Source: an uncultured Rikenellaceae bacterium (GTDB lineage: Bacteria; Bacteroidota; Bacteroidia; Bacteroidales; VadinHA17). Taken from it: a stretch of 64,000 nt of DNA. Numbering within the stretch: position 1 is the first letter of the stretch; each line of letters opens with the position of its first letter. The stretch covers positions 269 through 64,268 of the forward strand of contig CAZWUB010000003.1 in assembly GCA_964637415.1 (NCBI GenBank). Reading direction: 5' to 3'. This document shows positions 56,476 through 64,000 of the stretch, one piece after another. A program made the translations under genes and the position numbers. The notes beneath the pieces are model-generated. The model worked only from the letters and a program-made list of their open reading frames with translations. It made no database searches and was not told where the DNA came from.

Positions 56476-57477
56476 ATGGACTTATTGGATAGCATCAAAG
56501 AGAAAGCCAGGAAACATAACAAACGGATAGTGCTTCCTGAGGGATATGAAGAAAGAACAATTAAGGCAGCAGATATTGCAATATCTGAAGGGCTGGCACA
56601 GATAATTTTGTTGGGTGATCCGGAGGAAATGAAGGCACATGCTGAAAAACTCGGTTTGAAAAATATATCAAGGGCCACTATGGTAGACCCCAGGTCAAAT
56701 CCCATGAAAGACCATTACACAGATATAATGGTAGAGTTGAGGAAGAATAAAGGCATGACCAAAGAAGAGGCATTAAGGCTTATTGAGGATCCGCTTTACC
56801 TGGGAGTACTTATGATAAAGAACGGAGATGCTGATGGTGAGGTATCCGGTGCCGATCACTCAACAGGTGATGTTCTGCGTCCGGCTTTCCAATATGTAAA
56901 GACTGCACCAGGTATATCTGTGGTGTCGGGCGCGTTCATAATGATTCTTCCCGATAAGAGTTTTGGTGAAAACGGAGTGATAATTTTTGCAGATGGAGCT
57001 GTGCATCCCAACCCTACTGATAAGGAACTTGCAGAAATTGCAATTGCATCGGCCAGCACTGCACGAACCCTTGGTGGTTTCGAACCCAAAGTTGCACTTC
57101 TTAGCTTTTCCACAAAGGGCAGTGCAAAGCACGAACTTGTTGATAAAGTTATAAGTGCAACCAGAATTGCACAGCAGATGGCTCCGGATCTTATACTGGA
57201 TGGCGAACTGCAGGGCGATGCAGCTCTTGTGGAAGCAATAGGAATAAAAAAGGCCCCGGGAAGCAAAATTGCAGGTAAGGCCAATGTACTTGTATTCCCT
57301 GACCTCAACTGCGGAAATATTGCATATAAACTGGTACAAAGACTCGCTCACGCCGAAGCTATAGGCCCTATCCTCCAGGGTATGGCTGCACCTATAAATG
57401 ATCTGTCACGCGGCTGCTCGGTCAGCGATATAGTAAGTATGATAGCAATCACAGCAAACCAGGCTGCAGGAAAATAA
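56476..57477 (+). CDS. pta: Phosphate acetyltransferase (short, PTA_PTB-only type)
   Basis: Reads RIVLPEGYEERTIKAA, GDADGEVSGADHSTGDVLRPA, NVLVFPDLNCGNIAYK. 333 aa. Confidence 0.9.
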   Translation: MDLLDSIKEKARKHNKRIVLPEGYEERTIKAADIAISEGLAQIILLGDPEEMKAHAEKLGLKNISRATMVDPRSNPMKDHYTDIMVELRKNKGMTKEEALRLIEDPLYLGVLMIKNGDADGEVSGADHSTGDVLRPAFQYVKTAPGISVVSGAFIMILPDKSFGENGVIIFADGAVHPNPTDKELAEIAIASASTARTLGGFEPKVALLSFSTKGSAKHELVDKVISATRIAQQMAPDLILDGELQGDAALVEAIGIKKAPGSKIAGKANVLVFPDLNCGNIAYKLVQRLAHAEAIGPILQGMAAPINDLSRGCSVSDIVSMIAITANQAAGK

Positions 57478-57505
57478 TTTCAGAATTTAAATCACAGATC
57501 TTACA

Positions 57506-58717
57506 ATGATAATTTTAGTCTTAAATTGCGGCAGTTCTTCAATTAAATACCAGCTATTCAAAATGTCATCCGGTACCGGGATGCTCGCCAAAGGCCTTCT
57601 GGAACGGATAGGTCTGAATGAAAGTATACTTACTCACAAACCCACCGGTAAAGATCCTTATAAGGTAATAACTGATATTCCTGACCATACTACAGGTATT
57701 AATATGGTGATGGAAGTTCTTTGTCATCCCCGGCATGGAGTGATAAAAAATATTAATGAGATAAAGGCAGTAGGACACAGGGTAGTTAACGGAGGTGAGA
57801 ATTATAAGGAAAGCGTCCTTGTTGATAACGATGTCAAAAAGATTATAGAAGATTGCATAGAACTTGCTCCACTTCATAATCCGGCAAATCTTAAAGGCAT
57901 ACTTTCAGTTGAGAAACTTATCCCTGGTGTTCCTCAGGTAGCTGTATTTGATACATCTTTCCATCAGACAATGCCTGATTATGCATATATGTATGCAATT
58001 CCGTACGAATATTATGAGAAATACAAAATAAGAAAATACGGCTATCATGGTACAAGCCATAAGTTTGTGGCACAGAAAGCTGCAGGGATTCTTGGCAAGG
58101 ACTATAATAAGATTAAGATCATAACCTGCCATCTTGGTAATGGAGCTTCAATAACTGCTGTTAATAAAGGACAATCAATAGATACCTCAATGGGATTCAC
58201 TCCTGTCGATGGTCTGATTATGGGTACAAGGACCGGTGAAGTCGATCCGGGTGTTTTGGTATATATTGCAGATAAAGAACATCTTAATGTTACCGGGGTG
58301 AGCAATATGATAAACAAGAAAAGTGGTGTTTTCGGGATCTCGCAGATATCTTCGGATATGAGAGACCTTGAGACTGCAGCTGACGCAGGTAACAAAAAGG
58401 CAATTCTCGCACTTAAAATGTATGCATATAAGGTGAAGAAGTTTATCGGATCATATATTGCTGCGATGAATGGGGTTGATGTTATTGTGTTTACAGGCGG
58501 GATTGGTGAGAATGATTTCAAGATGAGGAAGATGATCTGCTCTGATATGGAAAATATGGGTATTCTTTTCGATGATGGGGTGAATAACGGAAGTATGGGG
58601 AAAGATATAATAATTTCAAGACCTGATTCAAAAGTTACGGTAATTGCTGTTACGACAGATGAGGAGCTTGTAATAGCATCGGATACGAGGACGATAGTGG
58701 AGCAGCAGACCGTTTGA
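57506..58717 (+). CDS. ackA: Acetate kinase
   Basis: Reads ILVLNCGSSSIKYQLF, VGHRVVNGG, YGYHGTSH, HLGNGASI, FTGGIGEN. Confidence 0.95.
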   Translation: MIILVLNCGSSSIKYQLFKMSSGTGMLAKGLLERIGLNESILTHKPTGKDPYKVITDIPDHTTGINMVMEVLCHPRHGVIKNINEIKAVGHRVVNGGENYKESVLVDNDVKKIIEDCIELAPLHNPANLKGILSVEKLIPGVPQVAVFDTSFHQTMPDYAYMYAIPYEYYEKYKIRKYGYHGTSHKFVAQKAAGILGKDYNKIKIITCHLGNGASITAVNKGQSIDTSMGFTPVDGLIMGTRTGEVDPGVLVYIADKEHLNVTGVSNMINKKSGVFGISQISSDMRDLETAADAGNKKAILALKMYAYKVKKFIGSYIAAMNGVDVIVFTGGIGENDFKMRKMICSDMENMGILFDDGVNNGSMGKDIIISRPDSKVTVIAVTTDEELVIASDTRTIVEQQTV

Positions 58718-58742
58718 TCTGTCAAACCAAGCACTTAAATAA

Positions 58743-59645
58743 ATGGTACTGAAGAGCCTTAATGACCTGAGAAGTATTGTGGCCGGCAGGCCGGGAAAGA
58801 AACTTGTGGTTGCAGCCGCACAGGATCAGCATTCCATGGGAGCTGTTGTACGAGCATGGAAAGACAATGTAATTGAACCTGTACTTGTCGGGGACAGGGA
58901 GAGCATCCTGAATATTTCAGCAGATAATAACTATGATATAACAGGGGTCAGTATCGTTCATGAGCCGGATATTGAAATGGCCACTCAGCTTGCCGTAAAA
59001 ATGGTGAATAATCATCAGGGCGATATTCTGATGAAGGGGAAGGTAGGAACATCAATTCTTCTCAAATGCGTTCTGAACAGGGAATGGGGCTTGAGAACAG
59101 GAAACATGCTTTCGCATTTTGCTCTTTTTGAAGTAGATACTTATCATAAGGTTATTGCAGTAACAGATGTGGCGATGAATATTGCTCCAAATCTTCAGGA
59201 AAAGATTGCAATAATTAACAATTCGGTTGGCTGTCTTGTGAAGCTTGGATACCATATGCCAAAGGTTGCAATACTTGGTGCCGTGGAGATGGTGAATGAA
59301 AATATGGAAGCAACACTCCATGCAGCTTTGCTTTCAAAAATGAACCAGCGCGATCAGATAAAAAATTGTATCATCGACGGGCCTCTGGCCTTTGATAATG
59401 CCGTAAGCCTTGAAAGTGCGAAACATAAAGGTATCCGGAGTGAGGTTGCCGGTGATACTGACCTTTTGCTTATGCCTGATATAGAGGTAGGTAATGTACT
59501 TTATAAATCACTTGTTTTCTTTGCCAAAGCCAGGGTTGCTGCAGTGATTCTCGGGGCAAGGGTCCCGATAGTCCTGACCTCAAGATCCGATTCTGAACAG
59601 GCAAAATTTGACAGTATCCTTCTTGCGGCAGCTGCAAGCCGGTAA
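58743..59645 (+). CDS. ptb: Phosphate butyryltransferase-type acyltransferase (paralogue 1)
   Basis: 300 aa PTA_PTB-family protein. Reads KLVVAAAQDQHSMGAV, GDILMKGKVGTS, DGPLAFDNAVS, DLLLMPDIEVGNVLYK. Confidence 0.8.
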   Translation: MVLKSLNDLRSIVAGRPGKKLVVAAAQDQHSMGAVVRAWKDNVIEPVLVGDRESILNISADNNYDITGVSIVHEPDIEMATQLAVKMVNNHQGDILMKGKVGTSILLKCVLNREWGLRTGNMLSHFALFEVDTYHKVIAVTDVAMNIAPNLQEKIAIINNSVGCLVKLGYHMPKVAILGAVEMVNENMEATLHAALLSKMNQRDQIKNCIIDGPLAFDNAVSLESAKHKGIRSEVAGDTDLLLMPDIEVGNVLYKSLVFFAKARVAAVILGARVPIVLTSRSDSEQAKFDSILLAAAASR

Positions 59646-59660
59646 ATAACAAAATCAGCA

Positions 59661-60563
59661 ATGATCAGTTCCCTCGGTCAGATGGTCGAAAGGGTGCTTT
59701 CAATGAAGAAAAAGCACCGCATCGCTGTTGCATGGGCTCAGGATGCAAATACAATCGCCGCCATAAATCTGGCTGTAAGAAATGGTTTTGCAGATGCCAT
59801 AATGATCGGACAACCTGAAAAAATTTCTGAGGTCTGTGCCAGTAATAGTATAGATCCCGGGATATTCACAATAATTAGTTGCGAAAATGAAACCCTTGCT
59901 TCTGAGACTGCCGTACAGATGGCTAAGTCGGGAAGTGCTGATATTGTCATGAAAGGGCTGGTGGGAACAGATATTTTCCTTAAAGCCGTGATTGATAAAA
60001 GCCATGGACTGATGCAACCCGATGCCGTTCTGAGCTATGTGGGAGTGATTGAATTACCTGAATACGATAAGCTATTATTTGTTACTGATCCTGCTGTAAT
60101 TCCTTATCCCGGATTAAAGCAAAAGATCGCAATGACTGCATATGCAATTGAAATGGCACGAAAATTTGGTATCGGGAATCCAAAGGTGGCACTGATCGGA
60201 GCTTCAGAAAAAGGAAGCCGGCATTTTCTGTATTCTTCGGATTATGCGGGGATTAAAAGTATGGGTGAATCGGGGAAATTCGGTAAGTGTATTATAGACG
60301 GTCCCCTTGACCTTTACCTTGCCTGCGACAGGAAAAGTGTCGAGATAAAAGGAGTCAGTACACCCGTTGCCGGTGATGCAGACATCCTCCTTTTCCCGTC
60401 CCTTGAAGCCTGCAATCCTTTTTACAAATCACTGATGCTGTTTGGTCATGGTGAACTGGGCGGACTTTTAATGGGAACCGACAAGCCTGTTATACTTATG
60501 TCGAGAAGCGAAAGTGAAAGATCAAAGTATTACTGCATTGCACTTGCTTGTCTGATGGACTGA
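59661..60563 (+). CDS. ptb: Phosphate butyryltransferase-type acyltransferase (paralogue 2, divergent)
   Basis: 300 aa. Reads RIAVAWAQDANTIAAI, ADIVMKGLVGTD, DGPLDLYLACD, DILLFPSLEACNPFYK. By eye it is roughly one-third identical to paralogue 1. Confidence 0.75.
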   Translation: MISSLGQMVERVLSMKKKHRIAVAWAQDANTIAAINLAVRNGFADAIMIGQPEKISEVCASNSIDPGIFTIISCENETLASETAVQMAKSGSADIVMKGLVGTDIFLKAVIDKSHGLMQPDAVLSYVGVIELPEYDKLLFVTDPAVIPYPGLKQKIAMTAYAIEMARKFGIGNPKVALIGASEKGSRHFLYSSDYAGIKSMGESGKFGKCIIDGPLDLYLACDRKSVEIKGVSTPVAGDADILLFPSLEACNPFYKSLMLFGHGELGGLLMGTDKPVILMSRSESERSKYYCIALACLMD

Positions 60564-60600
60564 AAGGTCACTATATTTGTTCAACTTATTGTTAATGTGC

Positions 60601-61674
60601 ATGGGAAAACGACTGATCCTGGCAATTAATCCGGGTTCCACCTCAACAAAATTTGCTCTTTATGAAGAAGAGGAACTCATATTTGAGAAAAATCTCCCAC
60701 ATTCAATAGAGGACATAAGTCCTTTCAGGGAGATCACCGACCAGCTGGATTTCAGAAAAGAACTGATAATTAATGAGCTTAGAGACAGGAAAACCAATCT
60801 TTCGGAAATATGTGCAATTGTTGGGAGAGGAGGGTTGGTCAGACCTATTGAATCCGGAATATATGAGGTAAATGAAAAGATGATCTCAGATCTTAAGAAG
60901 GGACTTATGGGACAGCATGCCAGTAATTTGGGAGGACTGATTGCAAATGGCTTAGCTGCTGATATGCCAAACTCAAGAGCATATATTGTTGATCCTGTGG
61001 TTGTTGATGAACTACAGCCTGTTGCCAGAGTATCAGGACATCCGGAAATAGAAAGAGTCTCAATCTTTCATGCTCTTAACCAGAAAGCCGTGGCAAGGAT
61101 GTTTGCAGCATCTGAAGGTAAGCCTTATGAAGCTCTTAACCTGATAATTGTACACATGGGTGGTGGAATTAGTGTCGGTGCGCATCGAAAGGGCAGGGTT
61201 GTTGATGTGAATAATGCACTTAACGGAGATGGCCCGTTTTCTCCCGAACGGTCGGGAAGTCTGCCTGCAGGACAGCTGGCCGACCTTTGCTTCAGTGGTA
61301 AATATACCCACGCTGAAATAAAGGCAATGATAACCGGAAAAGGCGGAATGGTTGCTTATCTCGGTACAAACAGCTTTATGGATGTTTGTAAGAGAGCCGC
61401 TGAAGGTGACAGGAAAGCTATTCTGATCAGGGATGCAGCAGCTTATCAGACAGCAAGGGAAATAGGGGCAGCCGCTGCAGTTCTCGAAGGTGATATAGAT
61501 GCAATAATCCTTACTGGAGGGATGGCAAAACAGGCCGACCATGTGGAAAGGATCAGAACTATGGTCAGGTTTATTGCCCGGGTTGTGGTCTTCCCCGGTG
61601 AAGATGAATTAAAATCTCTGGCCTACAATGGTTTGCTTGCACTTGACGGCAAGATAGAAATCAGGGATTACTGA
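60601..61674 (+). CDS. buk: Butyrate kinase
   Basis: The ORF opens at TTG 60577. ATG 60601 (or 60595) gives MGKRLILAINPGSTSTKFALY. Also reads GRGGLVRP, QHASNLGG, VHMGGGISV, LTGGMA. Confidence 0.9.
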   Translation: MGKRLILAINPGSTSTKFALYEEEELIFEKNLPHSIEDISPFREITDQLDFRKELIINELRDRKTNLSEICAIVGRGGLVRPIESGIYEVNEKMISDLKKGLMGQHASNLGGLIANGLAADMPNSRAYIVDPVVVDELQPVARVSGHPEIERVSIFHALNQKAVARMFAASEGKPYEALNLIIVHMGGGISVGAHRKGRVVDVNNALNGDGPFSPERSGSLPAGQLADLCFSGKYTHAEIKAMITGKGGMVAYLGTNSFMDVCKRAAEGDRKAILIRDAAAYQTAREIGAAAAVLEGDIDAIILTGGMAKQADHVERIRTMVRFIARVVVFPGEDELKSLAYNGLLALDGKIEIRDY

Positions 61675-62416: not shown

Positions 62417-62430
62417 TTACAAAAATGTAA
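62417..62430. promoter_or_regulatory. TTACA-AAAA-TGTAA inverted repeat abutting the start codon of the 62433 gene
   Basis: gTTACAAAAATGTAAttATG has the same half-sites as the palindrome array at 63614..63997 but a 4-nt spacer. Confidence 0.3.
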
Positions 62431-62432
62431 TT

Positions 62433-63026
62433 ATGGTTACTATAAAATATTTTTCAGCTACCCGAAGAATCATTCCTGCAATAATAATAACAGCAATCTT
62501 TCTGACCTGGCCTGCAATTGTCAGTTCGCAGAAAGTGAATAAAGATATACCACCGCTTCGCGAAAGGATATTCTTTGGCGGGGAATTCGGTCTCCAGTTC
62601 GGAACTTACACAGATATTGAACTAGCACCGGTAATCGGCTTATGGTTACTGCCACGTGTGGCTGTTGCAGCCGGACCGGAATATACCTATTATGCAATTA
62701 AAAACTATGGCAGCACCAGTATCTTTGGTGCAAGAGTATATACCCAGCTGGTTCTTATACAGGATATCAATAATATAATACCGGCAGGAATTCATTTAGG
62801 GCTGTTCGTTCACGCGGAGGATGAAATCCAAAGCTTCGAGTCTGATTTCTGGAACAATACTCAGGCCGGTTCGGAGCGGTTTAATGTTAATGCCCTTCTT
62901 TTCGGCGGAGGTATAAGTCAGCCGATGGGACGGCGGGGAGCACTCAATATTATCGCTTTGTGGGCATTGGATGATCCTTACGAGATCTACAGTACTCCTG
63001 AAATACGGATTAGTTTCACATTCTGA
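62433..63026 (+). CDS. Putative small outer-membrane beta-barrel protein
   Basis: Signal IIPAIIITAIFLTWPAIVSSQ. Alternating beta-like pattern and a C-terminal ...EIRISFTF ending in Phe, the classical OMP signature. Confidence 0.55.
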   Translation: MVTIKYFSATRRIIPAIIITAIFLTWPAIVSSQKVNKDIPPLRERIFFGGEFGLQFGTYTDIELAPVIGLWLLPRVAVAAGPEYTYYAIKNYGSTSIFGARVYTQLVLIQDINNIIPAGIHLGLFVHAEDEIQSFESDFWNNTQAGSERFNVNALLFGGGISQPMGRRGALNIIALWALDDPYEIYSTPEIRISFTF

Positions 63027-63126: not shown

Positions 63127-63159
63127 CCTTGTCAGAATTCAAAATTTGAATCTGACAGG
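63127..63159 (+). terminator. Imperfect hairpin about 100 nt downstream of the 62433..63026 gene
   Basis: ccttgtcagaattcaaa / tttgaatctgacagg gives about 15 bp with two single-base bulges. No U-tract follows, so the terminator function is doubtful. Confidence 0.25.
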
Positions 63160-63225
63160 AGGAGAGTCAGTGAAAATTGAACTTTACAGAAGTTAAAATT
63201 CATTTCTGCAGTTCCCGTTGGTTGG

Positions 63226-63330
63226 TTTCACAACCCATCCATCCCTTCACCTTAATTTCTATTCACAACTCTATCCCTTCCCATTCCACTTGATTCGTTT
63301 CATAACCCTATCCCTTCCCTTCCCCTTAAG
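63226..63330. repeat. Three direct ~26-nt pyrimidine-rich repeats (TTCAyAAC-CyATCCCTTCCC-type), period 35-37 nt
   Basis: The copies start at 63226, 63261 and 63298, as read directly from the sequence. Confidence 0.75.
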
Positions 63331-63344
63331 GTTAAGGGGAAGGG
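63317..63344. repeat. Near-perfect 28-nt palindrome CCCTTCCCCTTAA-gg-TTAAGGGGAAGGG
   Basis: The 13-bp arms at 63317..29 and 63332..44 were verified base by base. Confidence 0.9.
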
Positions 63345-63368
63345 TCACTAAAGTTGAATCTATGTTAC

Positions 63369-63398
63369 CCCCCTTCCCTTGGTCTTAAGGGAAGGGGG
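63369..63398. repeat. Hairpin CCCCCTTCCCTT-ggtctt-AAGGGAAGGGGG
   Basis: The 12-bp arms at 63369..80 and 63387..98 were verified. A further half-copy AAGGGGGAAGGG lies at 63402..13. Confidence 0.9.
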
Positions 63399-63438
63399 AT
63401 AAGGGGGAAGGGTTAAGATATGCAAGAGGGGAAGAGAG

Positions 63439-63494
63439 GATGAGGAGATGAGGAGATGAGGAGATGAGGAGATGAGGAGATGAGGAGATGAGGA
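63439..63494. repeat. Octanucleotide tandem array (GATGAGGA) x7, perfect
   Basis: Read directly. The minus-strand ORF 63360..63629 (SSSPHLLISSSPHLL...) is just its translation. Confidence 0.95.
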
Positions 63495-63613
63495 TAAAAA
63501 GGGGAAGACATATATAAAAGACAGGGTAAAAGGAAGAAATACTGAGGTCGGCTGGTTGCTGTGATAGGGAAGGGCAGAGACTGAAGTGGTAAACCCATTC
63601 AAAAATAACCAGG

Positions 63614-63997
63614 TTACAGATGTAAACACAGCATCAAAGCTGAATATTCACTTATGTAATCAGATTAATTATAATCATTAAATTACAAATGTAAAATTTC
63701 CTGAGATTTAAAATAAGTAATTTATAATATATATAAAATCAATACATTATACTGCCTCAAGTAACTGATTACCCATAATAAATCTGACTTTACGATGTAA
63801 AATACTGTTATTTGGTTTAGATATATCTTATATATACTTATAAACCAGTATTATAATGATCTAATCTAAAGTTTTACATCATAAATTAAAGAAAATATAT
63901 GACTGATTTACAATGGATTAATTTCATAATGATATCTGATAAACCAGTCAGGCATTTACAGAATTACACATGTAAATAACATTAATTACACATGTAA
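63614..63997. promoter_or_regulatory. Cluster of TTACA-N2-TGTAA (TTACAnATGTAA) palindromes in an ORF-free AT-rich region
   Basis: Perfect sites: 63614..25 (GA spacer), 63683..94 (AA), 63964..75 (CA) and 63986..97 (CA; 22 nt centre to centre from the previous one). A one-base-short variant is at 63790..63800. Half-sites are at 63956..60 and 63872..82. Confidence 0.5.
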
Positions 63998-64000
63998 TTT

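Follow-up and report, generated by a model that had tools for sequence, protein, structure and literature searches.

The predicted control region and the gene past the edge

The right end of the window (the whole analysed stretch of 64,000 nucleotides from an uncultured Rikenellaceae bacterium) is a tract of 22–28% GC, free of open frames as the initial annotation had described it, all six frames being closed on inspection; it leads into the gene of an XRE-type helix-turn-helix (HTH) regulator. The tract holds every perfect copy of the palindrome TTACANNTGTAA present in the entire 64 kb: a whole-window scan found four, at 63614 (TTACAGATGTAA), 63683 (TTACAAATGTAA), 63964 and 63986 (both TTACACATGTAA). 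These are the four perfect 12-mers that the annotation had reported; the identical cores of the last two, 22 nt apart, and the shared context CATTAA(A)TTACA are likewise as it described them. Its rough estimate that chance could hardly produce such an array also holds. Shuffling the whole window gives 0.05 perfect sites expected for the 4 found, and under a stricter control, the dinucleotide-preserving shuffling of the tract 63550–64000 itself (26% GC, 20,000 times), the mean was 0.004 sites and the maximum 1. The "several half-sites" noticed earlier amount to 13 in the tract for 2.6 expected.

Two imperfect copies call for a separate comment. The 11-nt variant TTACGATGTAA, listed in the annotation as a one-base-deleted site at 63790, is present as described, but it is probably not a site since the stretch surrounding it is unconserved among relatives. 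At 63648, on the other hand, the degenerate TCACTTATGTAA, overlooked at first, aligns with a conserved site of the relatives in spite of its 2 mismatches. With this site the predicted operators, to which no strand is assigned, form two triplets, one distal (D1–D3, spaced 34–35 nt) and one proximal (P1–P3, spaced 22–24 nt). D1 (63614..63625, perfect) corresponds to invariant columns in an alignment with 7 relatives; D2 (63648..63659) starts 34 nt after it and aligns with the TATTTACAnATGTAA block conserved in the relatives; D3 (63683..63694, perfect) starts 35 nt after D2. In the proximal triplet P1 (63964..63975, perfect) starts 74 nt before the ATG of the XRE gene and 350 bp from D1, P2 (63986..63997, perfect) starts 22 nt after P1, and P3, a fifth perfect site reading TTACATTTGTAA, lies past the edge at window-equivalent 64010–64021.

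The continuation that contains P3 was found with the closest relative's XRE protein as query, which led to the homologue P0138 in the same samples, SRR27710296 and SRR8925737; the homologues P0010 and P0093 led to syntenic relatives, P0138 to the true continuation. Four Logan contigs (L227–L230) show 100% identity to window positions 63465–64000, over 536 nt, and extend beyond the edge, where they read ATATTATAT-TTACATTTGTAA-AACTGATTAATATTAA-ATG. A site near 64009 and an ATG near 64038–64040 had been forecast from the relatives before this continuation was found. An exact 34-mer of the window end had no match in the JGI metagenome collection, and the short-read assemblies carrying the 197-aa gene of the window (62433–63026) all break at about 63250–63400, in a hairpin-rich stretch of low complexity.

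Extending the contig, a check that the initial annotation had itself proposed, thus places an XRE-family HTH gene downstream of the array, with its ATG at window-equivalent 64038, 38 nt past the window end. The 138-aa product matches Pfam HTH_3/HTH_19, and no S24 peptidase domain was found in it with Pfam. Its AlphaFold model (mean pLDDT 69) is confident for a five-helix domain and for a C-terminal beta-hairpin, which a disordered linker connects; with the N-domain of the model Foldseek retrieves SinR, 434 Cro, HigA, DdrO and HipB. Linker length ranges within the family from near zero up to about 150 residues, while the hairpin motif ExIVxFYxDxTFxxYxP, which matches no Pfam family, is kept in most members and may serve either in oligomerisation or in the binding of a partner. 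The recognition-helix residues S31, H32, R37 and N38 are invariant among members that are only 25–45% identical overall. The similarities of the protein in NCBIfam and PHROGs are generic, to repressors or antitoxins only, and a PDB sequence search is equally generic; the family had no match among viral contigs, and the locus shows no toxin or SinI-like partner gene. Short variants of 113–119 aa, in Chitinophaga and others (L037, L045, L079, L060), are devoid of the C-terminal hairpin, and their loci display three to five sites at a uniform spacing of 22–23 nt up to the ATG.

After the XRE gene come a pyrK-like gene, a pyrD-like gene and a gene for an AsnC-type regulator. Co-transcription of pyrK with the XRE regulator is possible; since a TATATTTG box lies immediately 3' of the XRE stop codon, pyrK may also have a promoter of its own.

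Between the two triplets lie further conserved blocks (63734–63750 and 63816–63881), reading TTTAGAwAT ... TATACCAG ... ATCTAAACT. The mid-block on the plus strand (63816..63881) is conserved between about -225 and -160 in many loci; RNAalifold finds 0 base pairs in it, hence no conserved RNA structure, and Rfam has no match on the palindrome tract. A sigma-70 promoter scan gave 7 promoter-like sites for 5.1 expected and a terminator scan called none, both scans being uninformative for the phylum Bacteroidota.

The DNA to the left of the tract deserves a few remarks of its own. The 8-mer GATGAGGA stands 7 times in perfect tandem at 63439–63494; the copy number of this repeat is polymorphic, the sole difference between the window and contig L225, from another sample, being a 32-nt gap (four copies) within it, and short-read contigs start or end at or beside it. 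The repeat lies in a low-complexity stretch (63212–63600), C/T-rich then G/A-rich, with inverted repeats such as the perfect 13-nt arms 63317–63329 and 63332–63344; this stretch is missing in the closest relative, L159, and relatives have an SDF symporter gene there. For the G/A-rich inverted repeat 63296–63422 Rfam gave only sub-threshold matches to miRNA hairpins. Relatives share the 197-aa ORF at 62433–63026 (78% identity in L159), whose product has a hydrophobic N-terminus and belongs to no Pfam or NCBIfam family; about 100 nt after the stop of this ORF a strong hairpin, TGTCAGAATTCAAA/TTTGAATCTGACA (63129–63158), also found in L159, went uncalled by the terminator scan. Only 2 nt upstream of its ATG, at 62417–62430, stands TTACAAAAATGTAA, made of the same half-sites with a 4-nt centre. 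L049 keeps this element at the orthologous position and L159 also has it; in the variants of L052 and L106 the centre measures 3 nt. The element could belong to a promoter or be one more target. Farther left (56476–61674) come, one after another, three genes of PTA_PTB-type phosphotransacylases and two of the acetate/butyrate-kinase type, then a divergent short-chain dehydrogenase gene; the domains are assigned from the matching contig L001.

Conservation of the sites in Bacteroidota

Conservation in relatives, also put forward as a check by the annotation, was approached from the protein and from the motif. On the protein side, 80 metagenome loci were fetched by similarity of the XRE protein alone, of which 78 had enough upstream sequence; the sample is mainly a Bacteroidales subgroup with 49–65% identity to the query protein. 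A perfect site is present within 110 nt of the ATG in 76 of these 78 loci, and 61 have two or more there; when 500 nt of upstream sequence were available, 57 of 58 loci had at least two sites within them. The site density reaches 6.2 per kb upstream of the gene for a single site in 174.7 kb of flanks, an enrichment of about 1000-fold. Site starts peak at -29 (P3), -52 (P2, often degenerate) and -75 (P1) from the ATG, then at -425 (D1), -391 (D2) and -356 (D3), and D1 is the most conserved block over 42 upstream regions. The distance between D1 and P1, 350 bp in the window, is 349–352 bp in 33 of 36 loci.

When the window tract is aligned with those of relatives, the palindromes stand out as the invariant columns. 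More precisely, the TTACA/TGTAA half-sites are invariant while the central two bases are free at D1–D3, P1 and P2. The sites stay with the XRE gene although its neighbours change (SDF symporter, queA, M14 peptidase, pyrK); in the clade of the window, 56 of 64 loci have a pyrK-like gene after XRE in the same orientation. Orthologues across Bacteroidota have these sites at matching positions, and this conservation of position and spacing constitutes, at the level of sequence, the signature of a regulatory operator array.

On the motif side, one genome per species was scanned for two TTACANATGTAA sites 8–12 nt apart, which returned at least 120 loci with paired sites. Eighty-one of them carry one and the same XRE-type HTH family, all 81 with Bacteroidota titles. 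Eleven further Bacteroidota loci remain among the matches listed: five have neighbours usual for the family (M14 peptidase in four, SDF symporter in one) and two more end at a contig edge. Four loci, L019, L064 and L087 (Bacteroidaceae) and L082 (Rikenellaceae), have a pair but lack an XRE gene within the 8 kb retrieved; nearby are metG, a xanthine/uracil permease gene, a DUF6078 gene and fmt. The pair of the three Bacteroidaceae loci is embedded in a longer palindrome, TTACAyTTGTAACACAsCCACTGTTACAAATGTAA.

With its thousands of sequence clusters, the XRE family extends over Flavobacteriia, Bacteroidales, Chitinophaga and Cytophagaceae. In Flavobacteriia (37 loci among the matches listed) the pair and a third site adjoin the 5' end of a divergently oriented M14 peptidase gene, one or two more sites being located at the XRE promoter, about 250 nt from those of the M14 side. 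In L008 (3053–3088) and the 36 other loci the pair is mostly within about 50 nt upstream of the M14 gene; the nearest NCBIfam model of this peptidase is the murein tripeptide amidase MpaA, at 28 of 157 bits, far below the cut-off. In a Prolixibacteraceae locus (L051, 7310–7344) a pair lies 2 nt upstream of a beta-lactamase-family gene (PF00144), right after XRE-pyrK-pyrD; this gene may be a second target of the XRE regulator.

A predicted self-repressing switch and its alternatives

We propose, with a probability of roughly three in four, that the tract is the conserved upstream control region of the XRE gene, and that its palindromes would be autoregulatory operators acting by promoter occlusion and possibly by looping. 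The annotation had imagined a multi-operator region for a dimeric DNA-binding protein controlling the gene past the edge, and the XRE gene together with the sites of its orthologues supports this prediction. The XRE protein is the candidate binder because its gene is adjacent and because its invariant recognition helix parallels the invariant half-sites; its dimers would bind the TTACA/TGTAA half-sites. Since P3 holds the -7 element, occupancy of P1–P3 would block RNA polymerase there, so that the XRE gene would repress itself, and D1–D3 would be auxiliary operators, probably looping to the proximal sites. The circuit may reach the pyrK/pyrD-like genes downstream of XRE. Because the same layout recurs across the phylum Bacteroidota, a self-repression switch is the probable function. 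Besides, the nearly fixed 350 bp, kept across poorly conserved AT-rich DNA, suggests that the triplets maintain their helical register, as a loop or a higher-order complex would require.

The role ascribed to P3 rests on the published -7 element of Bacteroidota, TAnnTTTG. The centre of P3 is TT in 67 of 67 perfect instances among relatives, giving T-TACATTTG-TAA; in the continuation of the window the box extends from 27 nt to 20 nt before the ATG. P3 is the only site with TAnnTTTG at the right distance from a gene start, and through it the array overlaps the predicted core promoter of the XRE gene itself. The constancy of its centre therefore argues that P3 is constrained twice, as palindrome and as promoter, and would be operator and -7 box at once. 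The annotation had cautioned that the AA-centred copy reads as a perfect -7 box on the minus strand, so that some copies could be promoter elements. The caution was right for one copy, P3, but not for the one it pointed to: at 63683 (D3) no gene faces the minus-strand TACATTTG, and the central dinucleotide varies among relatives.

Two points count against this proposal. The half-site centres are 7 bp apart, which is short for a classical dimer of the Cro/CI type; the XRE-type MqsA has a similarly short spacer. Moreover the predicted regulon comes down almost entirely to the regulator's own locus, which leaves its physiological role unexplained.

The alternative that survives best concerns the identity of the binder. 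The core TACANNTGTA is the experimentally established operator core of BlaI/MecI/CopY, refined for CopY into the consensus RNYKACANNTGTMRNY (PMC7253601), and the OP1 oligonucleotide of B. licheniformis BlaI contains TTACATATGTAA. This identity, which the initial annotation did not mention, extends to all four window sites for the core, and three of the four fit the 16-nt CopY consensus, for 0.2 expected in the window. Since the sites fit both, their sequence alone cannot tell the binder. The palindromes might then be operators of a BlaI/MecI/CopY winged-helix repressor encoded elsewhere, the XRE gene being a target and not the binder. Loci of the motif scan carrying a Penicillinase_R gene (BlaI/MecI/CopY) lend this some weight: there are 16 among the matches listed, 13 have this gene directly facing the pair, and they show the same preferred pair spacing of 24 nt. 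This common spacing might nevertheless be explained without homology if two operators cover the upstream and the downstream promoter elements.

The genomic distribution speaks the other way. Fifteen of these 16 loci have non-Bacteroidota titles and one is unclassified, in a scan restricted to pairs of sites having A at position 7, which BlaI-linked sites of Bacteroidota could escape. No locus among the matches listed has both the XRE family and Penicillinase_R, and no BlaI-family gene appears within the fetched 8 kb of the roughly 92 Bacteroidota loci among those matches, 81 of which have the XRE gene. In the window, a Penicillinase_R (PF03965) profile built from 12 proteins matched no ORF; downstream, the XRE, pyrK-like, pyrD-like and AsnC-type genes are present, whereas a BlaI-type locus would have PF03965, usually with BlaR1/M56 or a cop ATPase. 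Plasmids searched with tblastn for a BlaI gene of Bacteroidota gave mainly Firmicutes, with no Bacteroidota in the listed genera or in 40 sampled rows. Operators of known BlaI/CopY repressors sit at the repressors' own operons, whereas the sites described here track the XRE gene, and XRE-linked regions have 2–5 perfect sites when BlaI-linked ones have exactly 2. Such a distant winged-helix repressor thus seems to us an unlikely binder.

It may also be asked whether the palindromes bind another factor (architectural, nucleoid-associated or a second regulator), the XRE protein acting elsewhere. That the XRE protein binds these sites is indeed something we only infer, and the additional conserved block at 63816–63881 indicates that other factors probably act in this region. 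Yet the sites are enriched about 1000-fold at one gene family and nearly absent elsewhere, which argues for a locus-specific factor, the adjacent regulator being the obvious candidate, and the DNA-reading residues of the XRE protein are conserved together with the sites. We consider a factor of this kind quite improbable.

A reading by which the sites would be promoter elements only, repeated -7 boxes for the primary sigma factor, has in its favour the TAnnTTTG contained in TTACATTTGTAA, invariably so at P3, and the minus-strand box at 63683; we judge it very improbable, for the other three window sites (63614, 63964 and 63986, with centres GA, CA and CA) have no TAnnTTTG on either strand, the centres vary at D1–D3, P1 and P2 around invariant arms, which is the opposite of what a -7 box needs, and five or six copies at fixed spacing are no feature of a promoter. 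Two other candidates were rejected: an invertible, phase-variable promoter flanked by the two clusters, as the segment between them has one and the same orientation in the 42 aligned upstream regions and the -7 box lies outside it, and a replication origin with iterons, as no DnaA-box-like or rep-gene context was seen and the sites track one regulator gene.

Autoregulation by the XRE protein remains our preferred reading. Bacteroidota transcription factors with known binding sites are few, and here operator, promoter and site architecture are precisely predicted for a small family, whose regulator thereby becomes directly testable. A more ambitious proposal, to which we grant little credence, would make the family a phylum-wide regulator converged on the BlaI/CopY operator, acting through a looped complex of six operators as a BlaI counterpart for cell-envelope or nucleotide metabolism. 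What points to it is the M14 peptidase gene in Flavobacteriia, the beta-lactamase-family gene in one Prolixibacteraceae genome, and the regulator heading pyrK/pyrD in the clade of the window; the C-terminal beta-hairpin would in that case be a docking site for a signal-transducing partner.

Comparison with known repressor systems

The literature searched on the 12-mers, on XRE regulators in Bacteroidota and on BlaI in Bacteroidota gave no description of the regulator or of its sites, and public sources have only generic names for the protein. The XRE family, the six-site layout and the use of a bla/cop box by this family appear undescribed; the kind of system is textbook, namely an autoregulated HTH repressor with multiple palindromic operators.

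With BlaI/MecI/CopY the locus shares the core TACANNTGTA/TTACAnnTGTAA, the pairs about 24 nt apart over the promoter and the position upstream of the repressor's own gene; the pair upstream of the PF00144 gene in L051 further echoes the BlaI-blaZ arrangement. The protein, however, is an XRE-type HTH and not a Penicillinase_R winged-helix, neither a BlaR1/M56 sensor nor a copper ATPase lies nearby, and the six sites, arranged as two triplets separated by 350 bp, contrast with the two or three adjacent operators of BlaI/MecI/CopY. The window sites qualify as bla/cop boxes by sequence, not by genetic context. Because the paired sites of Bacteroidota are almost exclusively linked to another protein fold, a bla/cop box TACANNTGTA is in this phylum no evidence of a BlaI/CopY regulon.

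Non-canonical LexA proteins of Bacteroidetes are, like the regulator described here, CI-like HTH repressors binding palindromes upstream of their own genes. They recognise GGA-N5-TCC and CTAA-N5-TTAG and possess an S24 peptidase domain; with another motif, and no such domain in the XRE protein, this identification was rejected.

Another parallel is offered by SinR of Bacillus subtilis, HigA, HipB, DdrO and MqsA, which are autoregulators of the XRE family, all but MqsA being also among the best structural matches of the HTH domain. Palindrome-based autoregulation is usual in the XRE family, according to PMC12565409. The regulator of the window differs from these proteins by its tail, a disordered and very variable linker followed by the conserved beta-hairpin.

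The overall architecture recalls the operator arrays of lambdoid phages and 434 (OR1-3, OL1-3): a regulator of the Cro/CI fold, a triplet of palindromes over its own promoter, and a second, distant triplet. In lambda this distant triplet supports cooperative looping. The XRE gene, by contrast, is chromosomal and vertically conserved, outside any phage context, and it has neither a divergent cro-like partner nor an S24 peptidase domain; the palindrome measures 12 bp with a 2-bp centre, as compared with operators of 14–17 bp, and the two triplets are separated by 350 bp instead of 2.4 kb. This nearly fixed distance provides an unusually clean natural case for length-constrained DNA looping.
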